Shown one piece after another: positions 47,446 to 63,317 of a stretch of 64,000 nt of DNA. The stretch covers positions 22,797-86,796 of the forward strand of contig JAAZOD010000022.1 in NCBI GenBank assembly GCA_012797975.1, given 5' to 3'. Numbering within the stretch: position 1 is the first letter of the stretch; each line of letters starts with the position of its first letter. The notes under the pieces were generated by a model. It did not search any database. It had not been told where the DNA came from and saw only the letters and a program-made list of their open reading frames with translations. This DNA comes from Pelolinea sp. (GTDB lineage: Bacteria; Chloroflexota; Anaerolineae; Anaerolineales; Anaerolineaceae). The translations under genes and the position numbers were made by a program.

Positions 47446-47460
47446 AATTGTCCGACAAAT
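47446..47460. promoter_or_regulatory. palindromic operator-like site B (AATTGTC-C-GACAAAT)
   Basis: It lies 51 nt upstream of the deaminase ATG. The TTGTC/GACAA half-sites are shared with the sites at 52629 and 19929. Confidence 0.3.
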
Positions 47461-47510
47461 GATGGTATGATTAATTCGTTGAGAAAACCATACCGTCGAG
47501 AGGTACAGCT

Positions 47511-48899
47511 ATGGCCACCTTGCTTATCAAGAATATTCATACACTGGTCACCATGGACCCTGCGCGCCGGGAGATCAGCAATGGGGGAATGTTCATCAAG
47601 GACGGTTTTGTTCAGCAAATAGGGAATTCACAGGAATTGCCTGCGACTGCAGATGAAATCTACGATCTTGGCGGTCACCTTGTCCTTCCCGGTTTCATCA
47701 ATACTCACCATCACTTTTATCAAACGCTCACCCGTGCGGTGCCTGCCGCCCAGGATGCCAACCTCTTCAATTGGCTGAAGACGCTTTATCCCATTTGGGC
47801 GCGCATGACCTCGCAGGATATCTATCTTTCCACCAAAACTGCGCTGGCGGAGCTGGCGCTTTCGGGTTGCACCACCGCCTCCGATCACCTGTATCTTTTC
47901 CCCAATGGTTCCAGTCTGGATGATGAGATCAGAGCTGCTCAGGAGATGGGAATGCGCATTCATGCTTCACGCGGCTCCATGAGTCTGGGTGAAAGCAAGG
48001 GCGGTCTGCCGCCTGATAGCGTGGTGGATGATGAGGATTTTATCCTCAAAGACAGCCAGCGGCTGATCGAACGATACCATGACGCTTCTGTCGGTTCGAT
48101 GGCGCAGGTGGTGCTTGCTCCCTGTTCACCCTTCAGCGTGACCGGTGATTTGATGCGCGAAAGTGCCCATCTGGCCAGGCAGTATGGTGTGCATTTGCAT
48201 ACTCACCTGGCTGAAACCGAAGACGAACAGCAGTTCACGCTGGAAAAGTTCGGATTGCGTCCGTTGGCATATATGCAGTCGCTGGAATGGGTGGGTGAGG
48301 ACGTGTGGTTTGCCCATTCCGTCTATATCAATCCGGAAGAACAGAAAGTGTTTGCCGATACCGGCTGTGGGGTTGCACACTGCCCGAGTTCTAACATGCG
48401 CTTGGCTTCGGGTATCGCCCCGGTTCGTGAATATATGCAACTGGGGGTAAAAGTGGGGCTTGGCGTGGATGGATCGGCCAGCAACGATAGTTCGCATATG
48501 CTCGAGGAAGTGCGCCATGCCATGCTGGTGGCTCGTGTGAGGGCAGGGTTGGAGGGCGCTTCTCTTTCCGATTCGGGCGCTTCGCCCATCATGACGGCAC
48601 GTCAGGCACTGGAATTGGCGACCCTGGGTGGTGCCCGCGTTTTGGGACGAAAGGATATTGGCTCTCTGGAAGTGGGAAAATGTGCCGATTTCACCGCCAT
48701 TGATTTGAATCGCATCTCTTATGCGGGAGCGCTGCATGATCCGGTGGCGGCGGTTGTGTTCTGCAATCCCCAAAATGTCGATTACACATTCGTTCATGGA
48801 AAAGCGATTGTCGAGAAGGGAGAACTGCGTACCATGGATCTGGCTGAACATGTTCGGGCGCATAACCGGGCAGCCGCCAGATTGCTTAATGATGATTAG
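47511..48899 (+). CDS. COG0402-type amidohydrolase (8-oxoguanine/guanine/pterin deaminase-like)
   Basis: [13 protein letters not shown]...[15 protein letters not shown] (HxH metal site), ...HTHLAET..., ...GVDGSASND. Confidence 0.75.
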
Positions 48900-48904
48900 A
48901 AGAG

Positions 48905-49642
48905 GTGAATTCATTGCAAACTTTTACTCCATATCAACGATTACAGATAGAACTGGAAAAGATCATTAATTCTCAAAGGGCAGGGGCAAAGTTGCCTTCT
49001 GAACCGGAACTGGCAAAAAAACTGGGAGTTTCCCGCTCCACCCTGCGTGAAGCCATGCGCACGTTTGAAGTGCAGGGCTTGATCCGGCGCAGGCAGGGGC
49101 AGGGCACTTTTGTGGTTGGTAAACAAAAAACTTTTGAAGGAGGTCTGGAAGTATTAGAGAGTATTGAAACCCTGTCACAAAAAATCGGATTGAATGTGAG
49201 CATGGGAGAGTTGCAGGTCAAGCGCTTCAAAGTGGAAAAAGAGAATCAAGCATTTGTGAACTTCCCTTTGCGCTCCACGGTGATACAGGTCGACCGCACC
49301 ATCATCGCAGAAGGTCGCCCCATTGCCTATCTGATCGATATTGCACCCATTACCATCATGGATGAGGACGATCTGCAGGAAGGATTTGACGGTTCGGTGC
49401 TGGATTGGATGTTGAAACGCGGAGACCCGATCTTGGGCCAGTCCAAGTCGCGGGTTGATTCGATCGCAGCTTCCAGCGTAATTGCACATAAATTGCAGGT
49501 TCAACGCGATGCTCCTCTGCTGTTCTTCGAATCGGATGTGTATGATACGGCCGGTCAATTGGTCACCCACTCCTATAGTTACTTCATTCCCGGTTTCTTT
49601 GATTTTCATATCGTTAGAAAAGTTGCCAATAAAAAATTCTAG
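48905..49642 (+). CDS. GntR-family transcriptional regulator, HutC/UTRA subfamily
   Basis: w[44 protein letters not shown] plus a C-terminal UTRA-like domain. The track uses a GTG start. TTG 48914 with AGAGGTGA upstream is an alternative. Confidence 0.85.
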
Positions 49643-49660
49643 AATAATTGGAGGTATACG

Positions 49661-50614
49661 ATGAGAAGTTTTTTAGGACGTGATATTTTATCTTTGAAAG
49701 ATTTTGAACGATCGGAATTCTTCCGCTTGTTCGAAGTCGCCTTGGAAATGGATGAGATCGCCCGCAGCCGGCGGAATTCGGACATGCTGAAGGAAAAGAC
49801 ACTGGTGACAGCGTTCTATCAACCCAGCACCCGCACCCGCTTGGCTCATGAAGCTGCCATGCACCGCTTGGGCGGCCATGTCACCGGTTTCTCCGATGCC
49901 AAGATGACCCGTGCCGGTGACTGGTATCAGGAATCCATCAAAGATACCGTGCATATGCTTGAATACTATGGCGATGCCATTGTGATGCGCCATTTCCAGC
50001 AGGGCGCGCCTGCTGAAGCTGCCAAATGGTCCAGTGTTCCGATCATCAACGCCGGTGATGGTTGGGGTGAACACCCCACCCAGGTGTTGACCGATCTCTA
50101 TACGGTTTGGAATGAATTGGGCACCATCGACGGATTGACCTTCCTGTGCATTGGCGATATGCGCATGCGCACCATGCACTCCATTTCTTATGCCTTGACC
50201 CAATTCGACAGCAAGGTTTACTATGTCTGCCCGCCGGAAATGTCATTGACCCCTGAATTCAAGAAAGAACTGGACGAAAAGAACCTGGTCTATTACGAAG
50301 CCGATCATGTGGCGGATGTGATCGATAAAGCGGACGTGATCTACATGGAACCTGTGGTCCAACCCGATTACACCAAAGCCCGCCAGGAGGCTTCTGCCGA
50401 TAAGGGCTTTACCCCCGATAATTACAAGGTCACCCGCCAGTTATTAAAAGAGAAAGCCAAACCCGATTCCATTATTCTGCATTCTCTGCCCCGCATGGAT
50501 GAGCTGCCGCCCGATGTGGATGGCACCCGCCATGCCCGCTATTGGGAAGAAGCTTTCAATGGCGTTGTGATGCGCATGTCCATTCTGGCTTTGATCTTGG
50601 GTGCCATGGAATAA
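49661..50614 (+). CDS. aspartate-carbamoyltransferase-like transcarbamylase lacking the canonical aspartate-binding motif
   Basis: STRTR, MRH, HPTQ and HSLPRMDEL are present. Where ATCases have R-x-Q-x-E-R (TRVQKER in E. coli, LRIQNER in B. subtilis, from memory), this protein reads MEPVVQPD. Confidence 0.8.
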   Translation: MRSFLGRDILSLKDFERSEFFRLFEVALEMDEIARSRRNSDMLKEKTLVTAFYQPSTRTRLAHEAAMHRLGGHVTGFSDAKMTRAGDWYQESIKDTVHMLEYYGDAIVMRHFQQGAPAEAAKWSSVPIINAGDGWGEHPTQVLTDLYTVWNELGTIDGLTFLCIGDMRMRTMHSISYALTQFDSKVYYVCPPEMSLTPEFKKELDEKNLVYYEADHVADVIDKADVIYMEPVVQPDYTKARQEASADKGFTPDNYKVTRQLLKEKAKPDSIILHSLPRMDELPPDVDGTRHARYWEEAFNGVVMRMSILALILGAME

Positions 50615-50664: not shown

Positions 50665-51645
50665 ATGCAAACGAATTTACACGGAAGAGATTTGATCGGT
50701 GATCTTGATTTCACCAAAGAAGAAGTGGAAACCGTGCTGGATGTTGCCTGGGACCTGAAACGCAAACGCGCGTTGAATGAACCGCATGCTTATTTGCGCG
50801 ATAAGGTGCTGGCAATGCTGTTCTTCTTCAGCAGCACCCGCACTCGCGGTTCCTTTGAAGCGGGCATGGCGCAATTGGGCGGTCATGCTGCTTTTATCGA
50901 GAGCAAAACTACCCAGATTGCACATGGCGATACCGAAAAAGAGATCGGTGACATCTTCGGGCGTTATTTCGATGGCATTGCCATCCGCCATGTGGAATGG
51001 GGAACCGGCAACCGCTATTTGAACCTGGTCGCTCAGGCATCCCGCGTTCCGGTGCTCAACATGCAGTGCGAGATTTACCATCCTTTCCAATGCCTGGCAG
51101 ATCTGATGACCGTCATGGAGAAAAAAGGGCGTGATCTGCGCAAGAAGAAAATGGTGGTCTCCTGGGCGTATGCCGAATCCTATTCCAAACCCATTTCGGT
51201 GCCGCAGAGCTTGATCTTGCAGATGCCGCGTTTTGGACTGGATGTCACGCTGGCGCATCCGCCAGAGTTCGTTCTTATGCCTGAGATCATGGAACAGGCC
51301 AAAGAACAGGCGAAAAAATATGGTACGCACTTTGAGGTCGTCAACGATATGGACGAGGGTTTCAAAGATGCGGATATCGTTTATGCCAAATCCTGGGGAC
51401 CGCTGGTGTATACCGCGGATGCCGAAAAAGGTGCGGAGATCACGAAAAAATATTCCAGTTGGATCACCAATGAAAAACGCATGGAACTGGCGAAAGAAGA
51501 TGCCATCTACATGCATCCGCTGCCGGCGGATCGCAATATTGAGGTGACCGATGGTGTGATCGATGGGCCACACTCTGTGGTGTTTGATGAAGCCGAAAAC
51601 CGGCTGCATGCACAAAAAGCCGTCATGGCATTGACAATGGGATGA
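50665..51645 (+). CDS. ornithine-carbamoyltransferase-superfamily enzyme of the non-OTC (AOTC/SOTC/YgeW-like) type
   Basis: STRTR, HPFQ and FDEAENRLHAQKAVM are conserved. The ornithine-binding DxxxSMG is replaced by YAKSWG, and HCLP by HPLPADRN. Confidence 0.75.
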   Translation: MQTNLHGRDLIGDLDFTKEEVETVLDVAWDLKRKRALNEPHAYLRDKVLAMLFFFSSTRTRGSFEAGMAQLGGHAAFIESKTTQIAHGDTEKEIGDIFGRYFDGIAIRHVEWGTGNRYLNLVAQASRVPVLNMQCEIYHPFQCLADLMTVMEKKGRDLRKKKMVVSWAYAESYSKPISVPQSLILQMPRFGLDVTLAHPPEFVLMPEIMEQAKEQAKKYGTHFEVVNDMDEGFKDADIVYAKSWGPLVYTADAEKGAEITKKYSSWITNEKRMELAKEDAIYMHPLPADRNIEVTDGVIDGPHSVVFDEAENRLHAQKAVMALTMG

Positions 51646-51652
51646 CAAATCT

Positions 51653-52609
51653 ATGAAAAAACAGGTAGCGGTTGTGGCGATCGGCGGAAATTCGCTGATC
51701 AAAGATAATAAGAATGTTTCGGTGGAAAGCCAATACGAAGCGGCCAGGGAAACCACCTACCATATTGCCGATATGATCGAATCGGGGTGGGATGTTGCCA
51801 TTGGCCATGGGAACGGCCCGCAGGTTGGTTTCATCCTGCGTCGCTCAGAAATTGCCCACAAAGCGGCTGGCATGCATGAGGTGCCGCTGGATGTCTGTGG
51901 TGCGGATAGCCAGGGCGCCATCGGCTATTCTTTGCAGCAGACTCTGCAAAATGAACTGTATCGCCGCAAGATCAACAAACCGGTTGCCACGCTCATCACC
52001 CAGGTTTTGGTCGATAAAAATGACAAAGCTTTCAGCAGTCCAACCAAACCCATTGGCGGCTTCATGGAAGAAGCCGAGGCAAAGCAAAAAGAAAAGGACT
52101 TGGGCTGGAATGTGGTCGAGGATGCAGGCAGAGGGTGGCGGCGTGTGGTTGCTTCACCCATCCCGCAAGAAGTGGTCGAATTGGAAGCGGTGAAAGATCT
52201 GATCGCTGCGGGTGTGATCGTGATCACCGTCGGTGGCGGCGGCATTCCCGTGATCGATGCAGGCGATCGGCAGTTGATCGGCACTGCGGCTGTGATCGAT
52301 AAGGATTATGCCAGCAGCTTGCTGGCACGTGAGATCAAAGCGGATCTGTTCCTGATCTCCACGGCAGTGGAAAAGGTCGCATTGGATTTCGGCAAACCGA
52401 CCCAGCGCGATGTGGACCACATGACGCTCTCTGAGGTCAAAAAATATCTTGCCGAAGGGACCCATTTTGCCAAGGGGTCTATGGCCCCCAAGATACAGGC
52501 CATCATCTGGTATTTGGAGGCCGGCGGCAAGAAAGCCATTATCACGAACCCCGAAAATATCGGGCGTGCCTTGAAAGGCGAAACGGGAACCGTCATCGAG
52601 CCGGACTAA
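51653..52609 (+). CDS. arcC: carbamate kinase
   Basis: VAIGGNSL...VAIGHGNGPQVG...GGGGIPV, and the length fits. It starts 7 nt after the preceding gene. Confidence 0.9.
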   Translation: MKKQVAVVAIGGNSLIKDNKNVSVESQYEAARETTYHIADMIESGWDVAIGHGNGPQVGFILRRSEIAHKAAGMHEVPLDVCGADSQGAIGYSLQQTLQNELYRRKINKPVATLITQVLVDKNDKAFSSPTKPIGGFMEEAEAKQKEKDLGWNVVEDAGRGWRRVVASPIPQEVVELEAVKDLIAAGVIVITVGGGGIPVIDAGDRQLIGTAAVIDKDYASSLLAREIKADLFLISTAVEKVALDFGKPTQRDVDHMTLSEVKKYLAEGTHFAKGSMAPKIQAIIWYLEAGGKKAIITNPENIGRALKGETGTVIEPD

Positions 52610-52757: not shown

Positions 52758-52775
52758 ATTCCAATGGAGGAGAAA

Positions 52776-54002
52776 ATGGTTTCAAAAAATATCAAGGTAG
52801 TATTTGCGCTGGTTTTGGTGGCGACCCTGCTGCTGACCGCTTGCGCAAAAGGAACAAGTGAACCGGCAGCGAACTCGGAGGAGAGCGAAAAATTCGTTTT
52901 TGGCATGCTGCTGGTGGGTGCCTATAATGATCAGGGTTGGAACCAGGCACATTACGAAGCGGGTCTGTATGTGCAGGATCACATCCCCGGAACAGAAATG
53001 ATCTATATCGACAAGGTCAATACGGCTGACCGTCCCGGAACAACCCCCGACCAACTGGCGGAAGAACTGGTTGCCCAGGGTGCGAAGCTCATCATCTTTG
53101 ATTCTGATGATATGAAAGATGGTGCGCACGCGTTTGCTGCCGCACATCCTGATATTCCCGTGATCCATGCATCCGGTGATGGTGCTTGGGTGGATGGGAA
53201 TGCCTATCAAAACCTGCCCAATTTGGCCAATGTCATGGGCCGTATGGAGTATGGTAAGGAAATCGCTGGCTGTGCCGCTGCACTATCCTCAACTACCGGT
53301 AAGATCGGATACCTTGGCCCACTGATCAACGAAGAAACGCGCAGATTGACCGCTTCTGCGTATTTAGGTGCCAAGTACTGCTGGGAAAATGTAGCCGGCA
53401 AGGATCCTGCCGATCTGACATTTGAAGTGACGTGGATCGGTTTCTGGTCAAATATCCCTGGCGTTACCCTGGATCCAACCCAGGTTGCGGATGATTTCTT
53501 CAACCGTGGTTATGATGTGGTCATCTCAGGTATCGATACCACCGAAGCGTTGACCGAGGCCCAGAAATATGCCGATGAAGGTAATACCGTCTTCGCGATC
53601 CCCTATGATTTCAAAGGTGGTTGCGGTCAGACTTCCGGTGTTTGCCTGGGCGTTCCCTATTACAACTGGGGTCCGAGCTATACGAGCTATGTCCAGTCTG
53701 CCATCGATGGCAACTTTACCCCAAGCTGGGATTATCTGGCTCCAAATTGGGAAGATCTCAACAATCCTGATACTTCTGCGCTGGGGTTCGTCAAAGGCGA
53801 CGCTCTTCCGGAAGAGAATGGCGCAAAATTGGATGATTTCATCGCTGAATTGGCGGGCGGGTTGAACCTTTGGAAGGGTCCCCTGAATTTACAGGACGGG
53901 ACCGTTTTCTTGGCCGAGGGCGAAACTGCTACCGATTATCAGGTCTGGTATCTGCCCCAATTGCTGGAAGGTATGCTTGGATTAAGCACTGCGGCTGAAT
54001 AA
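52776..54002 (+). CDS. BMP-family (PnrA-like) ABC transporter substrate-binding lipoprotein
   Basis: Lipobox LLLTAC. FVFGMLLVGAYNDQGWNQAHYEAG is typical of BMP/nucleoside-binding SBPs. I preferred ATG 52776 (GGAGGAG 3-5 nt upstream) over 52764. Confidence 0.85.
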   Translation: MVSKNIKVVFALVLVATLLLTACAKGTSEPAANSEESEKFVFGMLLVGAYNDQGWNQAHYEAGLYVQDHIPGTEMIYIDKVNTADRPGTTPDQLAEELVAQGAKLIIFDSDDMKDGAHAFAAAHPDIPVIHASGDGAWVDGNAYQNLPNLANVMGRMEYGKEIAGCAAALSSTTGKIGYLGPLINEETRRLTASAYLGAKYCWENVAGKDPADLTFEVTWIGFWSNIPGVTLDPTQVADDFFNRGYDVVISGIDTTEALTEAQKYADEGNTVFAIPYDFKGGCGQTSGVCLGVPYYNWGPSYTSYVQSAIDGNFTPSWDYLAPNWEDLNNPDTSALGFVKGDALPEENGAKLDDFIAELAGGLNLWKGPLNLQDGTVFLAEGETATDYQVWYLPQLLEGMLGLSTAAE

Positions 54003-54018
54003 TATCGGATCAGTATAA

Positions 54019-54060
54019 AGAAGGGAAGAACGAGGTGTGTTTTTCCCTTCTTTCTCATTT
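54019..54060 (+). terminator. partial terminator / stabiliser hairpin after the SBP gene
   Basis: AGAAGGGAA (54019-54027) pairs with TTCCCTTCT (54043-54051), then TTCTCATTTTT. This arrangement is common between SBP and ATPase genes. Confidence 0.45.
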
Positions 54061-54067
54061 TTAGATC

Positions 54068-55534
54068 ATGGAAATAGAAATTCGAAATATTCATAAGTCG
54101 TTCGGTGCGGTGCATGCCAATGCCGGTATTTCTTTGACAGTCCATGCAGGTGAGATCCTGGGTGTTTTGGGCGAGAACGGTGCCGGAAAAACCACACTCA
54201 TGAAGATCTTGGCGGGATTGCAGCCCTGTGATGCAGGAGAAATCTACGTCGATGGCAAACTGGTGCATTTTCAATCTGCCGATTCGGCACTGGCCTTGGG
54301 CATTGGAATGCTTTCTCAAGATCCGCTTGATTTTCCCATGCTGACGATTTTTGACAATCTTTATCTGGGCCGAAAAAAAGGTTTTTTTATCCAGAAGAAC
54401 AGCTTTCGCAAGGAAGTGGAAAAAGTGGAAGATTTGCTCGCTTTCCATTTTAAGCTGAGCGAACTGGTTGGAACGCTCAGTATCGGAGAACGACAGCAAC
54501 TGGAGATCTTGCGCCTTCTTGTGTATGGGTCGGAGTTGATCATTTTGGATGAACCCACCACCGGCATCAGCACGCAGCAGAAAAAGCAATTATTCGATTT
54601 ATTGAAACGGTTGGCTGAACTTGGCAAGACGGTCATTTTTGTCACCCACAAACTGGCTGAAGTGAATGAACTGTGCCGGCGAACCATCGTTTTACGACAG
54701 GGAAAACTGGTGGGTGATGTGGCCTTGCCCTGCGGATCAGCATCCTTGATCCAGGCCATGTTTGGCAAAGCGGTTGACCTTCAAGATCCGCTGGATGTTT
54801 CTCGCTCGGAGGAGCAGTTCGAAGTGAGGCACCTGGTCATCAAGGATGCTCATTTTTTCTCCAACCCGGTGAATTTGAGCGTTCGCAAGGGTGAGATTCT
54901 GGGGTTGGCAGGCATGGAAGGATCGGGGCAAAAGGCATTTTTACGGACCCTGGCAGGCCTTGAGAAACCTTTGGATGGTGCTTTTTTCGATGAGGGGGAT
55001 GCCCTTCGTTGGGGTTCCACTCATTCTTTCACGAAACGCGGGGTCTATTTTATGCCTGCAGCGCGCATGGAAGAAGGATTGATCCAGGGCATGACCGTGC
55101 AGGAGCATTTCATCCTTTCGCAGCCGGCAGAGGAGATCATGATTGACCGCGAACGGTCGTGCAGGATCAGCGAAACGCGCATCAAGGAATTTTCCATCCA
55201 TGGTTCTTCTTCTTCCAACGCGGAAGAGTTGTCGGGTGGAAACCAGCAGCGTTTGTTGATCGCCATGCTGCCGGAGAGGGCTAGATTGTTGCTGCTGGAG
55301 AACCCGACCCGTGGGTTGGACATCGAGTCTACGAACTGGATCTGGGAAAAATTGCATGAACGCTGTAAGAAAGGGGCCAGCATTCTTTTTGCTTCTCCCG
55401 ATATGGAAGAATTGCTGCGCTTCAGCAATCGTATCCTGGTCTTTTTTGCCGGAAAGATATCTGAACCATTTTTCTCACGCGACCTGAATTCCGAGAAATT
55501 AGGTGCATTGATCGGAGGGGAAGGATGGCGGTAA
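54068..55534 (+). CDS. ABC transporter ATP-binding protein with duplicated NBDs (sugar/nucleoside type)
   Basis: GENGAGKTT...LSIGERQQ...ILDEPT, followed by a second, more degenerate NBD (GMEGSGQKA...LSGGNQQR...LLENPT). Confidence 0.9.
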   Translation: MEIEIRNIHKSFGAVHANAGISLTVHAGEILGVLGENGAGKTTLMKILAGLQPCDAGEIYVDGKLVHFQSADSALALGIGMLSQDPLDFPMLTIFDNLYLGRKKGFFIQKNSFRKEVEKVEDLLAFHFKLSELVGTLSIGERQQLEILRLLVYGSELIILDEPTTGISTQQKKQLFDLLKRLAELGKTVIFVTHKLAEVNELCRRTIVLRQGKLVGDVALPCGSASLIQAMFGKAVDLQDPLDVSRSEEQFEVRHLVIKDAHFFSNPVNLSVRKGEILGLAGMEGSGQKAFLRTLAGLEKPLDGAFFDEGDALRWGSTHSFTKRGVYFMPAARMEEGLIQGMTVQEHFILSQPAEEIMIDRERSCRISETRIKEFSIHGSSSSNAEELSGGNQQRLLIAMLPERARLLLLENPTRGLDIESTNWIWEKLHERCKKGASILFASPDMEELLRFSNRILVFFAGKISEPFFSRDLNSEKLGALIGGEGWR

Positions 55535-56610
55535 AAGAGAAAAAAATTGGGTTTGCTAAACGCTTACCTTCTTCTGCGGTGTTTTCGATCGCTTCTACGG
55601 TTGGCGCTTTGCTTTTTACCTCGTTCATTCTCTGGATGGCTGGCGCCCAACCGGGCTTGACCTTTGAAAAGATCCTGGCAGGTGCATTTGGTGATTCTGT
55701 AAAAATTGCCAATGGATTGGTGGTGTGGGTTCCGCTTTCCCTGACAGCAGGGGCCTTGATCATTACCTTCACGGCTGGCTTGTGGAACTTGGGTATTGAA
55801 GGGCAGATCATGCTGGGAGCTATTGCGGCAACCGGTACCTTGCGCGTTCTGCAGAATTCCTTGCTCTCACCCGTGCTGATCATCCTCTTTGCCTGCCTGA
55901 TGGGCATGGTGGGTGGGGCGCTGTGGGCTGCGCTGACGGGCATTTTGCGGTTGTTTGGTGGGGTGAGTGAGATTTTTGCAGGGGTTGGGCTGAATTTTGT
56001 CGCTACCGCACTTTCCCTGTGGCTCATTTTTGACCCCTGGAAGCGTCCCGGGGTTGGCTCGATGAGCGGTACGGAACCATTTGATGAACGGCTGTGGCTT
56101 GCAACGATACCCGGATATCGCTTGAGTCTCTGGTCGCTCGTTCTGGTGGTGGTTGTTTTTATCGGTTTGTTTATTTTGCTGAAGAAGACTCGCTTTGGCA
56201 TCCAGATCAAAGCCATTGGGAAAAACCTGGAAGCAGCGCGCTTGATGGGCATTCAGACTCGAAAACAGATGATGGCTGCCATGCTGCTGTGCGGTGGATT
56301 GGCCGGTTTGGCGGGTGCTTTGCAAGTTGTGGCGGTGTATCACCGCCTGATCCCATCCATTTCGTCCGGTTACGGATTCCTCGCCATGCTGGTTGCCATG
56401 TTGGCGAACAACAATTTGATGCTTGCCTTGCTGGTGGCATACCTCTTTGCCATTTTGAACATTGGTGGGATCCAGCTCCCGATTGTCCTTCATTTGGATT
56501 CAACGCTTTCGGGGGTTTTGCAGACGGCGCTGGTGCTTTTCTTTTTGATCATGAATGGAGTGAAGCAGCATTTGACGGAAAGAAAAGAAAGGAACAGGCA
56601 TGCAGAGTGA
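55525..56610 (+). CDS. ABC transporter permease (BMP/ribose-type)
   Basis: Polytopic. It overlaps the ATPase stop by 10 nt. Confidence 0.85.
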   Translation: MAVKEKKIGFAKRLPSSAVFSIASTVGALLFTSFILWMAGAQPGLTFEKILAGAFGDSVKIANGLVVWVPLSLTAGALIITFTAGLWNLGIEGQIMLGAIAATGTLRVLQNSLLSPVLIILFACLMGMVGGALWAALTGILRLFGGVSEIFAGVGLNFVATALSLWLIFDPWKRPGVGSMSGTEPFDERLWLATIPGYRLSLWSLVLVVVVFIGLFILLKKTRFGIQIKAIGKNLEAARLMGIQTRKQMMAAMLLCGGLAGLAGALQVVAVYHRLIPSISSGYGFLAMLVAMLANNNLMLALLVAYLFAILNIGGIQLPIVLHLDSTLSGVLQTALVLFFLIMNGVKQHLTERKERNRHAE

Positions 56611-57592
56611 TGTTCTTGTTGGGCTGGCTGGTGTGATCGCGTCTGCGGCTCCGATCGTGATCGCTGCGATCGGTGAAACGCTGACAGAAAAATCGGGAAT
56701 GCTGAACCTTTCTGTCAATGGCATCATCCTTTTGTCGGCCATGGGTGGTTTTGCAGTGTCTTACCGAACGGACAACCTGGCTGCAGGGTATCTGGCGGGA
56801 ATTCTCATCGGTGCCCTGATCGGTCTTATCCTGGCTTTCTGTACGCTCACCTTATATCAATCGCAGGTGGCAGTTGGTCTGGTGCTGGCTTTCCTTTGTC
56901 GTGATCTTTCCTATTTTCTGGGGAATGGTTTTATGGGATTGACCGCACCGGTCATGCATTCTGCAACGCTTCCGTTTCTTAGCGAACTGCCGGTTTTGGG
57001 CTCTTTGTTCTTTGACCAAACCGTGATGACGTATCTGAGTTTGCTGTGCATCCCGACTGCCCTAGTTTGGATCAACCACACCAGGTATGGGCTGGTCTTG
57101 CGGTCGGTGGGCGAAAGGCCCGAAGCGGCATTTGCGCGGGGGATTGATGTGAAGAAGGTGCGCTATCTGTATACGATTGTGGGAAGCGCATTGGTTGGGT
57201 TGGCCGGCCCGATCTATACCCTGGGATTGAAACCTGGTTGGAAGGGTTCCATGACCGGCTTGGATGGCATTGGTTGGATCGTTCTGGCGATCACCATTTT
57301 TGGCGGCTGGAATTCGTTTCGGGTGGCTTTGGGTGCCTATCTGTTCGAACTGCTGCGCTGGTTGGGTCTGGTCTATCAGGCCCAATGGAGTGGAGTGCCT
57401 TCTCAGGTTCTTCAGGTGGCGCCATTCCCGCTGATGATTTTGACCCTGGTGTTTGTGAATATGAAGAATTCGGAATGGTTTGAGAGTTTGATCAGCCTGC
57501 TGCCGCCCCCATTGTACAGATTCTTCTCCCTGAAAGGAAAACGGAACAAAGCCGCTCCCTCTTCACTAGGCATTCCATTTAGGAACGTGTAG
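56600..57592 (+). CDS. ABC transporter permease (second subunit)
   Basis: Polytopic. It overlaps the preceding gene by 11 nt. Confidence 0.85.
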   Translation: MQSDVLVGLAGVIASAAPIVIAAIGETLTEKSGMLNLSVNGIILLSAMGGFAVSYRTDNLAAGYLAGILIGALIGLILAFCTLTLYQSQVAVGLVLAFLCRDLSYFLGNGFMGLTAPVMHSATLPFLSELPVLGSLFFDQTVMTYLSLLCIPTALVWINHTRYGLVLRSVGERPEAAFARGIDVKKVRYLYTIVGSALVGLAGPIYTLGLKPGWKGSMTGLDGIGWIVLAITIFGGWNSFRVALGAYLFELLRWLGLVYQAQWSGVPSQVLQVAPFPLMILTLVFVNMKNSEWFESLISLLPPPLYRFFSLKGKRNKAAPSSLGIPFRNV

Positions 57593-57601: not shown

Positions 57602-58843
57602 ATGAAAAAATTTCATGCCTATCGCTGCTCTGTTTGTCAGACAATCTTCGAACCCCAGGATGTTTTTTACACCTGCCCGCATGATGGCGGCAATGTTGAC
57701 GTATTGCTGGATTATGATTCGTTAAAGACGCAATCGCTGGTCGATCCGATCACGCAATCCCGCGATTTTTCGATCTGGCGCTACCTGCCTTTATTGCCTG
57801 TGGCAGATCCCGGATTCGAAAGAACGCCGCTGCATTCCGTGGGCTGGACCCCTGTCTATGAATCTCCTGTCTTGTCACGGCAGGCCGGTCTGAAGAAGCT
57901 GTGGATCAAAGATGACGGGCGCAACCCGACTGCATCGTATAAAGATCGTGCCAGTGCTGTGGTGGTTGCCAGGGCAGGCGAAGTGCATGCGGATGTGGTG
58001 GTCACCGCTTCTACCGGAAATGCCGGCGCGGCTCTGGCAGGTATGGCAGCCGCCTGTGGCCGCAAAGCCATCATTTTTGCACCCAAAACCGCACCGCAAG
58101 CCAAGATCGCTCAACTGCTCGTTTTTGGTGCGCAGGTCATTCTGGTGGATGGAAATTATGACCAGGCCTTTGACCTGTCCGTAGCAGCATCGCAAGAATT
58201 TGGTTGGTATTGTCGCAATACCGGCTACAATCCGTTCACCGCCGAAGGCAAAAAAACGGCTGCTTTCGAGATCTGGGAACAGATATTGCTTTCCCATGAA
58301 AAATTTGATAAAGATATTTGCGTTTTTGTCTCCGTCGGGGATGGGAATATCATTTCCGGTATTCATAAGGGCTTTAAGGATCTGAAAGAGCTGGGGTTGA
58401 TCGCATCGTTGCCCAGGATTTTCGGTATTCAATCCGAAGGGTCGTCAGCCATTGCCAATGCTTTTGATGCAAAGACCGAGGAGATCAAACCGGTGCATGC
58501 CACCACGCTGGCCGACAGTATTTCCGTTGACCTTCCCAGAGATGGCCTGCGTGCTGTGCGTGCCGCTACCCAAACGAATGGTGCTTTTATCAAGGTGAGT
58601 GACCAGGAGATCCTGGCTGCTATTGGAAAATTAGGGAAAGCCGGCATTTTCTCCGAGCCGGCGGGTGCCACGGCGTATGCGGGAGTGCTGAAGGCTTCTG
58701 CAGAAGGCCTTGTTGATGAAAATGATCCGGTGGTGTGTATGATCACCGGAAGCGGATTGAAAGATGTGAAAGCAGCTATGCAGGCGGTTCCACAGGCCCC
58801 CATTATTGAACCGAACATGGCTGCCTTGAAAAAGATTATCTGA
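57602..58843 (+). CDS. threonine-synthase-like PLP enzyme with an N-terminal zinc ribbon
   Basis: YRCSVCQ...YTCPHDGG ribbon, PLP-lysine region NPTASYKDRAS, and SAGNAGAA-like TGNAGAALA. Confidence 0.7.
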   Translation: MKKFHAYRCSVCQTIFEPQDVFYTCPHDGGNVDVLLDYDSLKTQSLVDPITQSRDFSIWRYLPLLPVADPGFERTPLHSVGWTPVYESPVLSRQAGLKKLWIKDDGRNPTASYKDRASAVVVARAGEVHADVVVTASTGNAGAALAGMAAACGRKAIIFAPKTAPQAKIAQLLVFGAQVILVDGNYDQAFDLSVAASQEFGWYCRNTGYNPFTAEGKKTAAFEIWEQILLSHEKFDKDICVFVSVGDGNIISGIHKGFKDLKELGLIASLPRIFGIQSEGSSAIANAFDAKTEEIKPVHATTLADSISVDLPRDGLRAVRAATQTNGAFIKVSDQEILAAIGKLGKAGIFSEPAGATAYAGVLKASAEGLVDENDPVVCMITGSGLKDVKAAMQAVPQAPIIEPNMAALKKII

Positions 58844-58856: not shown

Positions 58857-59816
58857 GTGCCAGAACGTAAACCGAAATATTCTGTGATCGCCCCGGTTTT
58901 TAATGAAGTGGAAGGGTTGGGGGAATTCTACAAGGTATTGAGATCGGTGATGGAAACGGTGGATGGTGCATGGGAACTGTTGCTGGTGGATGACGGTTCA
59001 TCGGATGGTTCGCGTGAGGTCATTTTAGATCTTGCTGCAAAGGATGAGCGCGTCGTTCCGCTCATCTTTACGCGCAACTTCGGACATCAAATTGCGGTGA
59101 CCGCGGGGATGGACCATGCTCGCGGTGATGCTATTGTGATCATTGATTCTGACCTGCAGGACCCTCCGCAGGTTATCCCGGAGTTGATTGCCAGATGGAA
59201 AGAGGGATATGAAGTGGTGTATGCGGTGCGCCGTGAACGGGAAGGAGAAACCTGGTTCAAACGCGTCAGCGCCTCTGCTTTCTATCGCCTGATCGACCGC
59301 ATTACCGATGTGCGCATCCCATTGGATACCGGTGATTTTCGCCTGCTTGATCGCGAAGTTTTAACAACGCTCAATGCCATGCGTGAAAAACAGCGCTTTT
59401 TACGCGGCATGTCTGCTTGGGTTGGTTTCAATCAGATTGGTGTGGAGTATGATCGAAAATCGCGTTTTGCCGGGAAATCGAAATACCCTTTCAAAAAAAT
59501 GCTGAAACTGGCGTTGAATGCCATCACCGGCTTTTCAACGCTGCCTTTGCAGCTTGCAGAATACAGCGGGATCGCTTTGCTGACGCTCAGTGCAGTCTAT
59601 GCTGTTCTGGCACTTGTCTACGCTGTCCTTAAAAAACCCCTTCTGCCTGGTCAATCGTTGACAGTATTTTTATTGCTGTTTTTGGGAGGATTGACATCGC
59701 TATTTTTAGGCATAATGGGGGAATATCTCAGCCGAATTTATGATGAAGCGAAAGGAAGACCGCTTTATATCCTTCGGACAAATCCAAAAAAACTGAAAGT
59801 CAAGGAGACAAAATGA
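58857..59816 (+). CDS. family 2 glycosyltransferase (polyprenyl-phosphate glycosyltransferase-like, 2 C-terminal TM helices)
   Basis: YSVIAPVFNE, LLVDDGSSDGS, VIIDSDLQDPP. GTG start. Confidence 0.85.
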   Translation: MPERKPKYSVIAPVFNEVEGLGEFYKVLRSVMETVDGAWELLLVDDGSSDGSREVILDLAAKDERVVPLIFTRNFGHQIAVTAGMDHARGDAIVIIDSDLQDPPQVIPELIARWKEGYEVVYAVRREREGETWFKRVSASAFYRLIDRITDVRIPLDTGDFRLLDREVLTTLNAMREKQRFLRGMSAWVGFNQIGVEYDRKSRFAGKSKYPFKKMLKLALNAITGFSTLPLQLAEYSGIALLTLSAVYAVLALVYAVLKKPLLPGQSLTVFLLLFLGGLTSLFLGIMGEYLSRIYDEAKGRPLYILRTNPKKLKVKETK

Positions 59817-61279
59817 CACGAATTGATCTGACTGTCCATGAAGATCGCCTGAAAAATTCAATCCAGCGAGCCCGGGAACGCAACATCATCATCCCCACTT
59901 TTGCACAGATGCGTGATCCTGACCGGATGCCGGAAAAGATCAAGGAGGAGCTTGCCGGTTTGGGGTTGTGGGATGTCAATCCGCGCAATTTGTACCGCAT
60001 TACTTGGAAGAACGAACCTAAGGAAAAGGGCGGAAGGTTTGATGGGGTGAATTTTATTGAGTTTCCTAAGGAATTAACCGGCGTCAATGCCCGCATCATT
60101 GCCTTGGTAGGGAAATGGTTCCCAACTGGCGCTCATAAAGTGGGAGCATCCTTTGGCTGTCTGGTCCCCCGCCTGGTGACCGGCCAATTCGATCCCATTC
60201 ATCAGAAAGCAGTCTGGCCTTCTACCGGCAATTTTTGCCGGGGCGGCGCCTATAATTCCACCCTGCTGGGGTGCAAGTCCATCGCCATTTTGCCGGAAGG
60301 CATGAGCAAGGAACGTTTCGATTGGTTGAAATCGGTGGCGGGGGAGATCATCGCCACACCTGGCAGTGAATCGAATGTAAAAGAGATCTACGATAAATGC
60401 TGGGAGCTGCGCAATTCGGGTGAAGATCTCATGATCTTTAACCAATTTGAAGAATTTGGGAATTACCTCTGGCATTATGAGATCACCGGCCATGCCATGC
60501 AGGAAGTGCTGGAACAGGTCATGGGACCGAACGATGAATTCTGCGGTGTCACCCTCACCACCGGTTCTGCCGGTACCATTGGTTGCGGCGATTACCTGAA
60601 GCAGGCTTTCCCGGGCAGCAAGATCGCGGCTGGCGAAGCGGTGCAGTGCCCGACATTATTGGAAAATGGTTTTGGCGCTCACCGCATTGAAGGCATTGGC
60701 GATAAACATGTGCCCTGGATTCACAATATCAAGAATACTGACTTGGTGATTGCCATTGATGATAATGTGGTGGTGAATATGGCACGCCTGTTCAACGAAC
60801 CGGAAGGGCGCAAATATCTGGCAGAGAAGGGTGTTCCGGAAGAAACCGTGTCCAAATTGGGATATCTTGGTTTCTCAGGCATTGCCAATATGTCCATGGC
60901 CATCAAGATGTCGAAGTATTATGAATTGGGTGAAAATGATGTGGTGTTGACCGTTTTGACCGATTCGATGGATCTGTACCAGAGCCGCTTGAAAGAAATG
61001 CATGCTGAATTTGGCGATTTTACCCGCACCGATGCAGCGGTGATCTTTGCGCGTGACCTGCACGGGCTGGCAACTGATTATATGCAGGAACTTTCTTATG
61101 CCGATCGCCGCAGAGTGCATAATTTGAAATATTTCACCTGGGTTGAACAGCAGGGTAAAACGTATGAAGAGATCTGCGACCAGTGGGAGAATCGGACTTA
61201 CTGGACCGAACTGCAAAGTCAGATCCCTGAGATTGATGCCCTCATCACAGAATTCAATAAGAAGGTTGGGCTTTTGTAA
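59813..61279 (+). CDS. fold-type II (Trp-synthase-beta-like) PLP-dependent enzyme, 488 aa, function unknown
   Basis: FPTGAHKVGASFG resembles the TrpB HTGAHK lysine motif, and STGNFCRGGAY follows. ATGA overlap with the GT2 stop. Confidence 0.6.
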   Translation: MTRIDLTVHEDRLKNSIQRARERNIIIPTFAQMRDPDRMPEKIKEELAGLGLWDVNPRNLYRITWKNEPKEKGGRFDGVNFIEFPKELTGVNARIIALVGKWFPTGAHKVGASFGCLVPRLVTGQFDPIHQKAVWPSTGNFCRGGAYNSTLLGCKSIAILPEGMSKERFDWLKSVAGEIIATPGSESNVKEIYDKCWELRNSGEDLMIFNQFEEFGNYLWHYEITGHAMQEVLEQVMGPNDEFCGVTLTTGSAGTIGCGDYLKQAFPGSKIAAGEAVQCPTLLENGFGAHRIEGIGDKHVPWIHNIKNTDLVIAIDDNVVVNMARLFNEPEGRKYLAEKGVPEETVSKLGYLGFSGIANMSMAIKMSKYYELGENDVVLTVLTDSMDLYQSRLKEMHAEFGDFTRTDAAVIFARDLHGLATDYMQELSYADRRRVHNLKYFTWVEQQGKTYEEICDQWENRTYWTELQSQIPEIDALITEFNKKVGLL

Positions 61280-61289
61280 GAGATATGCA

Positions 61290-61880
61290 ATGAACGATGT
61301 TCCTTCTTCAACCGATCTGGTGCTGGTTTGCCTGATCCCGCAGCCGCGCGATCTGGAGATCGCCCGGGTCCTGGGTTGGTATCGCATCCCGCTCAGGCAT
61401 GCGCCCAAGGTCGTTTTCGTTGATTGCCTGGCATTCTACCAGCCAGCCTCTTTTGGGAAGGAACATCAGTGGATGATCGAATATGTTGCCCCTGTGCGTG
61501 GTGTGGAATTGACCAGGCGCAGGGACTTGTTAAAGGAAGAGATCGATCATCCCAGAGCAGGGGATGAATATTACAAAATTGGCCTGGGTGATCTGGTGAA
61601 GCTTTCCAAACCCATCCCCGCTGATGTCTGGAAACGGATCACTTTTTTCTACACCAGCGGCGAACAGGTCCTTTGTGCAAATTCTATCTCTGACCTGCTC
61701 ATCGGACAGGCGCGAAAGGACCTTTTTCAAAACATTGGAATGGAACGCCGCAGCAGGTTTGCTGATATTCCAACAGGTGATATGGCAAAACTGCAGCAGG
61801 AATTTTTGCAGTATATTCTTGAAGTGAATGATGCTGTAAAGAAGAACGACCATGCCGTTCAGGAAGTTGACTTTGAGTGA
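61290..61880 (+). CDS. hypothetical protein (196 aa)
   Basis: I trimmed to ATG 61290, 10 nt after the preceding stop. The GWYRIP motif recalls a conserved uncharacterised family that I cannot name. Confidence 0.5.
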   Translation: MNDVPSSTDLVLVCLIPQPRDLEIARVLGWYRIPLRHAPKVVFVDCLAFYQPASFGKEHQWMIEYVAPVRGVELTRRRDLLKEEIDHPRAGDEYYKIGLGDLVKLSKPIPADVWKRITFFYTSGEQVLCANSISDLLIGQARKDLFQNIGMERRSRFADIPTGDMAKLQQEFLQYILEVNDAVKKNDHAVQEVDFE

Positions 61881-61898
61881 ATGGAAGGCGGATGACGG

Positions 61899-63317
61899 AT
61901 GAAAACATTATTGAAATCAGGAAAAATCATTACCGCCTCCGACCAGTTTATCGGCGATGTGCTCATCGAAGGTGAAAAGATCAGTGCGGTCGGTTCCGAT
62001 CTTCATCCCGATGCGGATACCGTGATTGTGAATGCATCCGGTAAGTTCATTACCCCGGGTGGGGTGGATGCACATGCCCATTTTGATCTGCCTATGGCTG
62101 GAACGGTTTCATCCGATGACCATTACACCGGTTTGAAGGCTGCTGCCTTCGGTGGCACCACCACAGTGTTTGACTTTGTGTCGCAGGATGGACCATCGTT
62201 GAAAAAATGTGTGGATGCCTGGCATGCCAAGGCGGATGAAAAAGCGGCGGTTGATTTTGGCTGCCATATGAATATCACCGCTTTCAATGACCAGGTGGCG
62301 GGGGAAATTCCTGATCTGCGCGAGATGGGGATCAACAGCGTAAAAGTCTTCACTGCCTATAATGGGCGGCTGCGCCTGCAGGATGGCGAGATCTTTCAGG
62401 TTCTGCGTATTGCAAAAGAGAACCGCCTCCTGGTCATGGTGCATGCGGAAAACGGGGATGTGATCGATATTCTTACCGATGAAGCGGTGAAAGCGGGCCA
62501 TCATGCTCCCGAATGGCATGCTCTCACCCGCCCGGCGGAAGGTTCCATTGAAAATGTTTTTCGAACCATATCCCTGGCGCAACAGGCCCAGGCGCCGGTC
62601 TACATCGTTCACATGAATACCGCCGGTGAAGTGCAGATTCTGAAGAAAGCCAGGGAAAAGGGATTTCCGGTGATGGGAGAGACTTGCCCGCAGTATCTGT
62701 ATTTTACGGTCGATGATTTGCGAAAAGCGGATGGGGCAAAATGGATCTGCTCTCCGCCCATGCGGACCCGCGCGGACAATGAAGGTATTCAAAAGTTCTT
62801 GGGAGAGGGTGTTTTGCAGGTGATCGCAACGGATCATTGCCCATTCTTCTTTGATGGCACACATCCCATCCTTTATGAGGGGAAAGAGGTTCTCATTCCT
62901 GGGAAAGAACTGGGAAAGGATGATTTTACAAAGATCCCCAATGGCTTGCCAGGTGTGGGAGATCGCATGCTGGTGCTGTGGAATTATGGTGTGCGGAAGC
63001 AGATGATCACCCCCCAGCAATTTGTTGCCATGACCTCTACAAACCCGGCAAAGATCTTCGGCTTGTATCCTCAAAAAGGGACGCTTATGCCGGGTGCGGA
63101 TGCCGACGTGCTCGTCTGGAATAAAAATGCTCCGATTCGCTATGGAGTACGGTATGCGCAGCATCGCACCGATTACAACCTGTATGAAGGTTGGGAAATG
63201 CAGGATACGATCCAGAAAGTGTACTTGAGAGGAAAACTGATCGTGGATGATGGCAACTGGTTGGGGAGCAGAGGTCAGGGAAAATTCCTGGCCTGTTCTG
63301 ATCCAACGGTGATCTAG
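61899..63317 (+). CDS. dihydropyrimidinase / D-hydantoinase family cyclic amidohydrolase
   Basis: GGVDAHAHFDLP (HxH), KVFTAYNG (carboxylated-Lys region), VHAENGD, ATDHCPF. Confidence 0.85.
   Translation: MKTLLKSGKIITASDQFIGDVLIEGEKISAVGSDLHPDADTVIVNASGKFITPGGVDAHAHFDLPMAGTVSSDDHYTGLKAAAFGGTTTVFDFVSQDGPSLKKCVDAWHAKADEKAAVDFGCHMNITAFNDQVAGEIPDLREMGINSVKVFTAYNGRLRLQDGEIFQVLRIAKENRLLVMVHAENGDVIDILTDEAVKAGHHAPEWHALTRPAEGSIENVFRTISLAQQAQAPVYIVHMNTAGEVQILKKAREKGFPVMGETCPQYLYFTVDDLRKADGAKWICSPPMRTRADNEGIQKFLGEGVLQVIATDHCPFFFDGTHPILYEGKEVLIPGKELGKDDFTKIPNGLPGVGDRMLVLWNYGVRKQMITPQQFVAMTSTNPAKIFGLYPQKGTLMPGADADVLVWNKNAPIRYGVRYAQHRTDYNLYEGWEMQDTIQKVYLRGKLIVDDGNWLGSRGQGKFLACSDPTVI

Follow-up and report, generated by a model that had tools for sequence, protein, structure and literature searches.

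The 64,000-nucleotide stretch of Pelolinea sp. DNA analysed here (contig JAAZOD010000022.1; the whole stretch is called the window) contains a string of plus-strand genes in which two transcarbamylases are encoded next to a carbamate kinase, together with a deaminase, a GntR-type regulator, an ABC importer, two pyridoxal phosphate (PLP) enzymes and a hydantoinase. The window proteins were called as open reading frames (ORFs), and families were assigned by scans with Pfam and NCBIfam models. Matches to these proteins lie in metagenome-assembled genomes of Anaerolineae and Chloroflexota, and a JGI metagenome contig of 170 kb (L006) is identical to the window from position 51899 onward. The following genes make up the cluster.

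47511-48899, plus strand: COG0402 amidohydrolase, a deaminase of the 8-oxoguanine/guanine type (NF006055, 672 bits, cutoff 532)
48905-49642, plus strand: GntR/HutC-type regulator with a UTRA effector domain (Pfam GntR and UTRA)
49661-50614, plus strand: pATC, a transcarbamylase like aspartate transcarbamylase (ATCase), with pseudo-ATCase motifs
50665-51645, plus strand: xOTC, a transcarbamylase of the ornithine transcarbamylase (OTC) superfamily, predicted to be of a compact knotted type; 326 amino acids (aa), below every NCBIfam cutoff
51653-52609, plus strand: carbamate kinase (TIGR00746, 372 bits, cutoff 358)
52764-54002, plus strand: substrate-binding lipoprotein of a Bmp/PnrA-family ABC importer (Pfam Bmp; an N-terminal hydrophobic segment followed by a cysteine)
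54068-55534, plus strand: ABC ATPase with two nucleotide-binding domains (Pfam ABC_tran, twice)
55525-56610 and 56600-57592, plus strand: two permeases (Pfam BPD_transp_2)
57602-58843, plus strand: ThrC-like PLP enzyme of fold type II with an N-terminal zinc ribbon (PALP, 249 bits)
58857-59816, plus strand: GT2, a protein like polyprenyl-phosphate glycosyltransferases (Pfam Glycos_transf_2), with two C-terminal transmembrane (TM) helices
59813-61279, plus strand: PALP2, a CysK/CBS-like PLP enzyme of 488 aa (PALP, 51 bits; TGAHK lysine motif)
61290-61880, plus strand: soluble protein of 196 aa outside any known family, also present as a gene call in L006
61899-63317, plus strand: hyd, a D-hydantoinase/dihydropyrimidinase and the counterpart of HyuA (TIGR02033, 508 bits, cutoff 393)

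An initial annotation, made from the sequence alone, had named all of these genes, and each was recovered on the plus strand at or near its position in the ORF calls and the Pfam and NCBIfam scans; the gaps of 50 nt between pATC and xOTC and of 7 nt between xOTC and the kinase gene were exact. Its boundaries had to be moved, since the first gene begins at 47511 instead of 47446, and the presumed end at 63317 is followed by further genes on the same strand, beginning with a membrane protein of 522 aa from 63329.

For comparison by tblastn with the window proteins, two samples of related loci were used. The first comprised 87 non-redundant loci, of which 79 came from a genome scan anchored on xOTC and 8 from the surroundings of homologues of xOTC, hyd, SsnA and the iron-sulfur subunit of xanthine dehydrogenase (XDH). 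The second sample was anchored on pATC and comprised 39 metagenome loci, each 8 kb or longer. In the first sample, xOTC was present in 86 loci, and pATC and the kinase in 78 each; in the second, the respective counts were 36, 39 and 36. The GntR gene was identified directly upstream of the transcarbamylase genes in 62 of the 87 loci, and the 8-oxoguanine deaminase in 47. The genes have the same order in over 120 independent loci, and the arrangement is not a product of chance. The importer is of another type or missing in a part of the loci. Because GntR precedes the transcarbamylases, and because the ThrC-like enzyme and PALP2 follow carbamate kinase even without a transporter, the core consists of GntR, pATC, xOTC, carbamate kinase, the ThrC-like enzyme and PALP2. 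The two PLP enzymes come after the kinase both in loci that have no transporter (L014, L015, L036) and in loci with another transporter type, and they close the cluster in its shortest versions (L066, L071).

pATC has kept the carbamoyl-phosphate site of ATCases, with STRT, Arg105 and HPTQ, and Arg167 is also retained. The site for the second substrate is altered: Lys84 is replaced by a tyrosine within a conserved 80s loop, RAGD[WF]Y, the HPLP motif reads HSLP, and the R-x-Q-x-ER register is lost in both alignment registers. From the set of residues that characterizes the aspartate site of PyrB (Lys84, Arg167, Arg229/Gln231 and HP[LG]P), Arg167 alone remains, and the changes are constant across 61 orthologues. 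A charge reversal at Arg229 had also been considered and was dropped; the 240s region is placed differently by two aligners. The ATCase model TIGR00670 is passed marginally, with 253 bits against a cutoff of 237. When compared with Table 1 of Barba et al. (PMC4016543), pATC carries the motifs of pseudo-ATCases, namely STRT, HPTQ, HSLP and V-Q-P. A search of 1.84 billion representatives showed that identity to pATC is 66% or more within its Chloroflexota clade and 50% or less beyond it. The nearest relatives from outside are singletons on short contigs, and a metagenome scan seeded with one such outsider, P0370, led to the Chloroflexota clade only. The RAGD[FYW]Y loop is common to many other representatives which are not ATCases, while true ATCases have KGE[ST] together with R[VI]QKER.

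xOTC lacks both signatures of an ornithine transcarbamylase, since AKSWGP stands in place of DVWxSMG (DxxxSMG in general form) and HPLP in place of HCLP. On two OTC models the protein reaches 257 bits against a cutoff of 306 and 250 against 281, and is not recognized as ArgF/ArgI. It also falls outside the YgeW family as modelled by TIGR03316 / NF005538, where cutoffs of 500 and 453 are missed with 197 bits and about 205 bits, respectively. xOTC is 37% identical to E. coli YgeW and shares with it the WAYxxSYxKPxSVPQ loop, the extended 120s loop, the KSW[GA]P motif and a short 80s loop. An alignment with E. coli YgeW and the acetylornithine transcarbamylase of X. campestris revealed the marks of the knotted transcarbamylases (extended 120s loop, WxY...KP and KSWG), so that a knotted fold is predicted for xOTC. 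The long 80s loop by which acetylornithine transcarbamylases bind acetylornithine is missing, and so are the N- and C-terminal helices and the 240s insertion of YgeW, which has 396 aa compared to the 326 aa of xOTC. Relatives of xOTC were found in at least 497 species-representative genomes; the best 80 of these (GTDB species) are 82-95% identical and nearly all from Chloroflexota, with two records labelled Eisenbacteria and Zixiibacteriota among them. An ORF of 359 aa on the minus strand (50677-51756), antisense to xOTC, recurs in related loci because xOTC itself is conserved.

The description of both transcarbamylases as atypical in the initial annotation is thereby borne out, pATC having lost the aspartate-site signatures and xOTC being without ornithine motifs. 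The same residues bear on a housekeeping role, in which pATC would be PyrB, xOTC would be ArgF or an acetylornithine transcarbamylase, carbamate kinase would serve as carbamoyl-phosphate synthase and hyd as a dihydroorotase analogue. The score of pATC just above the TIGR00670 cutoff would fit such a role, as would the unusually high conservation of xOTC among its best 80 relatives. However, the residues at the second-substrate sites argue against an identification of pATC with PyrB, for which Lys84, the R-x-Q motif and HPLP would be expected, and equally against xOTC being ArgF, as DxxxSMG, HCLP and the acetylornithine-binding loop are absent. Furthermore, deaminases, an importer and a GntR/UTRA regulator belong to the operon, and SsnA, XDH and YgeY are encoded in cis in related loci. 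Anabolism is hence regarded as scarcely credible.

The deaminase passes the 8-oxoguanine deaminase equivalog model and matches the solved 8-oxoguanine deaminases 3HPA and 7WW2 with 572 and 541 bits. Its identity is only 25% with SsnA of E. coli and 29% with GuaD, and with 155 bits on SsnA models that have cutoffs of 444 and 455 it is not an SsnA. For the kinase, the equivalog assignment is supported by a second model (NF009007, 401 bits, cutoff 266), and identity to E. coli YqeA is 51%. The hydantoinase shows 37% identity with HyuA of E. coli along its full length and belongs to the same NCBIfam family, as expected for a HyuA-type enzyme; its nearest solved relatives are dihydropyrimidinases and D-hydantoinases (PDB 3SFW, 400 bits). 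Together with the relation of xOTC to YgeW, these identities uphold the proposal of the initial annotation that the cluster is catabolic, probably ATP-yielding and ureide-cleaving, and akin to the E. coli ygeW-yqeA-hyuA-ssnA region.

Around the cores of related loci, accessory genes were identified in varying combinations, and curated models confirmed purine genes among them. Adenine deaminase (TIGR01178, 485-615 bits) was present in 45 loci, and the M20 hydrolase YgeY (TIGR03526, 440 bits) in nine plus three related loci. SsnA (NF005540, 523-563 bits) was found in L025, L032, L091-L093 and L096/L097, and YgfK (TIGR03315, 893 bits, cutoff 835) in L156, where the same ORF also matched a model for dihydroorotate dehydrogenase B/glutamate synthase below its cutoff. 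XDH of the selenium type and of the three-subunit type lies beside orthologous cores in L024, L032, L095, L109, L112, L156, L169 and others. An F420 oxidoreductase of the LLM class occurs together with npdG and CofC/D/E in L091/L092/L096. In the pATC-anchored sample, 28 of the 39 loci contain at least one purine marker. A comparison of synteny with the E. coli purine region had been proposed in the initial annotation; in these relatives, SsnA, YgfK, YgeY and XDH stand beside orthologues of both transcarbamylases.

A single string in L096/L097 consists of deaminase, hydantoinase, adenine deaminase, pATC, xOTC, carbamate kinase, ThrC-like enzyme, GT2, PALP2, the 196-aa protein, SsnA, npdG and CofE. 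In L096, which is metagenomic, each enzyme family of the window cluster is represented by a homologue, and SsnA and the F420 genes are present in addition. In L156, L169 and L112, YgfK, SsnA and an XdhD-like enzyme adjoin the core. In the window-type operon of L095, which ends at the hydantoinase, genes for a second paralogue of adenine deaminase and for the three subunits of an XDH are inserted ahead of the ThrC-like gene. Two variants with a single transcarbamylase were identified, one with YgeY and pATC (L122) and one with YgeY and xOTC (L088). Loci of the hyd type and of the SsnA/F420 type share transcarbamylases of 81-84% (xOTC) and 70-75% (pATC) identity, and the dihydropyrimidinase-type hydrolase holds the operon position which SsnA has in sister clusters. 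It was also considered whether SsnA excludes the deaminase or hyd as an alternative: none of 52 loci of the first sample had both, but L096/L097 carry all three.

The second adenine-deaminase paralogue is about 35% identical to the first and lies immediately upstream of the three XDH subunits in L060/L062/L075/L076/L094/L095, an order which mirrors ssnA-ygfM-xdhD of E. coli; it may act on another aminopurine or in ring opening. SsnA-type clusters furthermore contain small, apparently selfish ORFs, among them a 267-aa protein of L032 (17408-18211), which resembles a homing endonuclease or helix-turn-helix protein by eye and has no family match, four-helix-bundle proteins of the 23S-rRNA-IVP family (PF05635; L091/L092) and PDDEXK_3.

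Since the accessory enzymes that were identified are all specific for purines, a reductive pyrimidine catabolism appears extremely improbable. Here, dihydropyrimidinase would open dihydrouracil or dihydrothymine, and a transcarbamylase would phosphorolyse N-carbamoyl-beta-alanine, which the initial annotation had offered as an example in place of beta-ureidopropionase. The full score of hyd on the dihydropyrimidinase model TIGR02033 and its closeness to solved dihydropyrimidinases and D-hydantoinases agree with this route. However, a single transcarbamylase would suffice for it and PLP lyases would not be needed, and no cytosine- or uracil-specific gene was identified in about 126 related loci. 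PydA/PreTA is likewise absent from the annotated families of these loci, where no query for it or for dihydropyrimidine dehydrogenase was made and YgfK was the only related match. The beta-alanine example is therefore given up.

In E. coli and C. sporogenes, the reductive pathway starts with the conversion of urate to 2,8-dioxopurine, which is dearomatised by YgfK, and SsnA and HyuA open the two rings to give 2,3-diureidopropionate (bioRxiv 10.1101/2025.04.24.650524; PMC12507026). YgeW then phosphorolyses one ureido group, YqeA forms ATP, YgeY hydrolyses the other ureido group, and YgeX converts diaminopropionate to pyruvate and ammonia (bioRxiv 10.1101/2025.04.24.650524; PMC12507026). The pathway was solved in 2025 (Liu et al. 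2025; Li et al. 2025), and formation of ATP from 2,3-diureidopropionate by YgeW and YqeA was shown in vitro (bioRxiv 10.1101/2025.04.24.650524).

With moderate confidence, the cluster is considered by analogy to be a Chloroflexota variant of this reductive uric-acid/2,8-dioxopurine pathway, that is, a purine (urate) fermentation operon of an anaerobic Anaerolineae bacterium, in which the second transcarbamylase appears to supplement or replace the hydrolase YgeY. The operon would cover the lower half of the pathway. The linkage of the core, the purine markers in cis, the L096/L097 string and the similarity to the E. coli cluster point in this direction. The Bmp-type ABC system would import a purine or an intermediate, and the deaminase would provide a feeder step in which urate or xanthine is formed from 8-oxoguanine or guanine. 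Enzymes encoded outside the window would carry out the reduction and open the pyrimidine ring; hyd, whose substrate would be a hydantoin or dihydropyrimidine ring, would then open the remaining ring to yield 2,3-diureidopropionate. xOTC and pATC would then each phosphorolyse one ureido group of this compound. pATC might take the alpha (2-) ureido group of the diureido or ureido amino acid and xOTC the other one, but this assignment is a guess, because the ureido group said to be cleaved by YgeW differs between the two papers of 2025 (bioRxiv 10.1101/2025.04.24.650524; PMC12507026). Carbamate kinase would form ATP from carbamoyl phosphate and ADP, so that up to two ATP might be gained per purine instead of one. 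The ThrC-like and CysK-like enzymes would replace YgeX in the conversion of 2,3-diaminopropionate (or albizziin) to pyruvate and ammonia, and GntR would repress the operon until a pathway metabolite binds. The pairing of YgeY with either transcarbamylase alone, in L122 and L088, fits a role of each transcarbamylase on one ureido group.

Several points weigh against the reductive pathway. The substrates and the chemistry of the enzymes are inferred by analogy with E. coli and C. sporogenes. No homologue of XdhD-YgfM or XdhAC was found in the window by tblastn, nor is there one in the 10 kb downstream; SsnA is missing from the same region, and none of YgfK, UacX and an F420-dependent LLM reductase, nor YgeY or YgeX, was found in the window. 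Without XDH, reductase and SsnA in the window and the following 10 kb, the operon alone cannot turn urate into the diureido acid by the known route. Even L095, the fullest operon of the hyd type, has XDH but no reductase and no SsnA. The hydantoinase of L096 is only 30% identical to the window hyd. YgeY occurs with both transcarbamylases in several loci, which implies that the second transcarbamylase is not a simple replacement of YgeY. A YgeX orthologue was found in none of the related loci of the pATC-anchored analysis, and two PLP enzymes of other subfamilies, ThrC-like and CysK-like, are present instead. The scheme leaves GT2 and the 196-aa protein without a role, and both persist in L096/L097. 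The hyd-type operon (that of the window, with L095 as its fullest form) might represent a self-contained purine route distinct from that of E. coli, with no need for a YgfK, UacX or F420 reductase in cis and with both ureido groups kept as carbamoyl phosphate for two ATP per purine, in which the PLP pair, GT2 and the 196-aa protein would perform chemistry absent from the published pathway; this is held to be unlikely.

The most serious rival for the hyd-type operon is a non-reductive, hydrolytic purine route, xanthinase-like or a hybrid, and it is judged to be quite improbable. Here, xanthine or urate would have its pyrimidine ring opened directly by a dihydropyrimidinase-type hydrolase, one transcarbamylase would phosphorolyse a ureido-imidazole(one) carboxylate, and hydantoinase and the second transcarbamylase would convert a hydantoin to glycine and a second carbamoyl phosphate. 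The absence of reductase and SsnA from the window-type operon and from L095 would be accounted for, and by our own stoichiometry the reaction urate + 5 H2O -> glycine + 3 CO2 + 3 NH3 is redox-balanced. The gene for the methylenetetrahydrofolate dehydrogenase/cyclohydrolase FolD is adjacent to the cluster and one for formiminotransferase-cyclodeaminase (FTCD) lies in the window; both enzymes belong to clostridial purine fermentation. In addition, one pseudo-ATCase representative, P0419, comes from Cytobacillus firmus, and the xanthinase pathway occurs in Clostridia and Bacilli (PMC12507026). However, the high identity of the transcarbamylases across hyd-type and SsnA/F420-type clusters, and their position beside YgfK, SsnA and XdhD elsewhere, argue for the same aliphatic ureido substrates in both. 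If glycine were the product, the two PLP enzymes of the core would be idle. A UbiD-type decarboxylase or an imidazolonase is not among the annotated families, neither of which was specifically searched for.

A further possibility is a route via allantoin and allantoate, with hyd as allantoinase, pATC as ureidoglycine carbamoyltransferase (allantoate + Pi -> ureidoglycine + carbamoyl phosphate) and xOTC acting on the second ureido group or on oxalurate. Allantoate has two ureido groups, and pATC has pseudo-ATCase motifs. Rxyl_2847 of Rubrobacter xylanophilus, a pseudo-ATCase encoded beside allantoinase and carbamate kinase, was shown to have carbamoyltransferase activity on this diureido acid, that is, ureidoglycine carbamoyltransferase activity (PMC4016543). 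The activity of Rxyl_2847 on allantoate would also support a division of two ureido groups between the two transcarbamylases in the reductive pathway. Against allantoin, hyd reaches 508 bits on the D-hydantoinase model but 240 bits on the allantoinase model, under the cutoff of 358. Uricase, 5-hydroxyisourate (HIU) hydrolase, 2-oxo-4-hydroxy-4-carboxy-5-ureidoimidazoline (OHCU) decarboxylase and glyoxylate-pathway enzymes are missing from the annotated families of the related loci, in which they were not specifically searched for. The accessory genes for SsnA, YgfK, YgeY and the F420 enzymes are those of the reductive pathway, the carriers are anaerobic as judged by lineage, and the PLP enzymes would have no role. 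This makes the allantoate route very unlikely.

The PLP enzymes that would stand in for YgeX belong to other subfamilies. The ThrC-like enzyme scores 189 bits on TIGR00260 and 244 bits on NF006050, the latter below the cutoff of 303; it matches B. subtilis ThrC with 181 bits, and its similarity to YgeX is weak. PALP2 reaches 89 bits on the cysK model, far under the cutoff, and 66 bits with cysteine synthases, confined to residues 132-332. A third PLP enzyme of 332 aa, similar to threonine/serine dehydratases (ilvA_1Cterm, 341 bits, below cutoff), is encoded between pATC and xOTC in the SsnA-type cluster L092 (1790-2788).

The GT2 gene overlaps that of PALP2 by 4 nt and is present in 35 of the 87 loci as well as in the distant L096/L097; its product matches the PgfS and ArnC models below cutoff. 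Genes for envelope-type glycosyltransferases are recurrently associated with the operon. L047, between pATC and xOTC, and L088, between YgeY and xOTC, have an insertion of another (second) GT2 and/or of a protein of 666-689 aa with eight TM helices, the latter ArnT/GT-C-like by size and TM count alone. Large membrane proteins without a family (563-569 aa and 448 aa) lie inside the SsnA-type clusters L091/L092. The 196-aa protein has no match in Pfam or NCBIfam, and a single-sequence AlphaFold2 model of it is unusable, with a mean confidence score (pLDDT) of 38.5. In 10 loci, and likewise in L096, its gene is kept between those for PALP2 and the hydrolase of ring opening.

Four further features border or interrupt the cluster.

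46491-47405, plus strand: FolD (Pfam THF_DHG_CYH and THF_DHG_CYH_C, 238 and 141 bits), directly upstream of the cluster
47461-47497, no strand: inverted repeat, imperfect (GATGGTATGATT / AACCATACCGTC), located 14 nt upstream of the deaminase gene, a candidate GntR operator
54017-54053, plus strand: hairpin with a perfect stem of 16 bp and a T-rich tail, between the genes for the substrate-binding protein and the ABC ATPase, a possible attenuator
63329-64000, plus strand: start of a membrane protein of 522 aa with 14 TM helices, which runs beyond the window and follows hyd after a gap of 11 nt

The strict form of the inverted-repeat pattern (GATGGTATGATT / AACCATACCGTC) was not found upstream of related loci. 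In a scan for promoters and terminators, site counts were not above those of shuffled controls, and only the hairpin at 54017-54053 stands out; its position is typical of differential expression within ABC operons. A member of the FolD family is encoded upstream of the deaminase in 18 related loci, and possibly it is a syntenic neighbour only. A minus-strand ORF which overlaps FolD (46445-47377) matches no family and is likely to be spurious. The bifunctional FTCD (515 aa; FTCD_N, FTCD and FTCD_C) is encoded at 7280-8827 on the plus strand, 40 kb from the operon. By analogy, FTCD and FolD could handle formimino-C1 units as in clostridial purine/histidine fermentation. At 35708-38408 on the minus strand, upstream of the cluster and with no relation to it, lie genes for an FmrO-type ribosomal RNA methyltransferase of an aminoglycoside-resistance family and a queuine tRNA-ribosyltransferase.

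Past 63317, the same-strand gene string continues, and three polytopic membrane proteins are followed by a coiled-coil protein and then by SelB. In L006 (11431-16134, corresponding to the window from 63329 onward), these are the 522-aa protein with 14 TM helices, a 189-aa protein with 6 TM helices, a NuoN/MnhD-like protein of 463 aa (Proton_antipo_M) and the coiled-coil protein of 408 aa. The first three are also located 3' of hyd in L014 and L036, and it is uncertain whether these membrane proteins belong to the pathway. The selenocysteine elongation factor SelB is encoded at 16149-18053 of L006, about 5 kb downstream of the operon, which implies that the organism makes selenoproteins. Sister clusters contain selenium-dependent XDH-like enzymes.

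Anaerolineae are among the most widespread fermenters of anaerobic digesters, sediments and the subsurface, and few have been cultured. If ATP is gained from purines through the core, this group would have a standard source of energy in the nucleobases of dead biomass. For the energetics of the pathway, both ureido groups of 2,3-diureidopropionate could be conserved as ATP rather than one, and the cluster would represent a natural experiment on which of the two undergoes phosphorolysis. For enzymology, two transcarbamylase specificities new to characterisation are offered, one of a pseudo-ATCase with a substituted aspartate site and one of a minimal knotted transcarbamylase. Knowledge of the variant could also be of use in designing probiotics that degrade urate, a field in which flux is being weighed against energy yield (PMC12507026).

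Compared to the E. coli region, which contains xdhD-ygfM, ygfK, ssnA, hyuA, ygeW, yqeA, ygeY as well as ygeX, the window shares genes related to HyuA, YgeW and YqeA, a guanine-type deaminase and an importer. However, XdhD, YgfK, SsnA and YgeY are missing, the place of YgeX is taken by the ThrC-like and CysK-like enzymes, a second transcarbamylase of the pseudo-ATCase type is paired with xOTC, and GT2 and the 196-aa protein are embedded in the cluster. Regulation and import differ as well, with GntR in the window and the sigma-54-type YgeV in E. coli, and with a Bmp ABC system instead of NCS2 permeases. In keeping with the reductive reading, Li et al. have reported SsnA clusters from Chloroflexota in which an F420 reductase and PF00185 genes are neighbours; paired transcarbamylases and other PLP enzymes do not figure in their description (PMC12507026).

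With the xanthinase (Rabinowitz) pathway, compared here by secondary descriptions, the cluster would have in common the anaerobic breakdown of purines and a hydrolytic opening of the pyrimidine ring as the first step, and the window contains FolD and FTCD. Aminoimidazole-carboxylate decarboxylase, aminoimidazole deaminase and imidazolonase were not among the annotated families of the window and the related loci, in which no dedicated search for them was made. The xanthinase pathway is reportedly the subject of Tong et al. 2023, and the genus Cytobacillus is said to be linked to that work.

In the known modules of transcarbamylase and carbamate kinase, for arginine deiminase, agmatine/putrescine and oxalurate, the genes are likewise adjacent, and the kinase performs a substrate-level phosphorylation after an N-carbamoyl compound has been phosphorolysed. 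The window differs from them in having two transcarbamylases per kinase, no ornithine or putrescine motifs and no deiminase.

The initial annotation had known of no description of two different transcarbamylases in one such operon. This has to be corrected, since in Nocardioides sp. JS614 a pseudo-ATCase adjoining a homologue of ygeW, and accompanied by xdhABC and hyuA, was already noted by Barba et al. 2013 (PMC4016543). By full-text searches, no description of paired transcarbamylases in the reductive uric-acid pathway was found, and the Nocardioides note is the only precedent. The window repeats this pairing of a pseudo-ATCase with a YgeW-related enzyme. Like the pseudo-ATCases of Barba et al., pATC has STRT, HPTQ, HSLP and V-Q-P and lies beside a cyclic amidohydrolase and carbamate kinase in surroundings of purine genes. 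Its motifs are those of their group 3, which comes from marine bacteria with another gene context, whereas its own context resembles groups 1 and 2. The substrate of Rxyl_2847 is allantoate, while the substrate proposed for pATC would be a ureide with a propionate backbone. 2,3-Diureidopropionate was described by Percudani as structurally reminiscent of allantoic acid, and from a reading of both structures it is the one-carbon homologue of allantoate.

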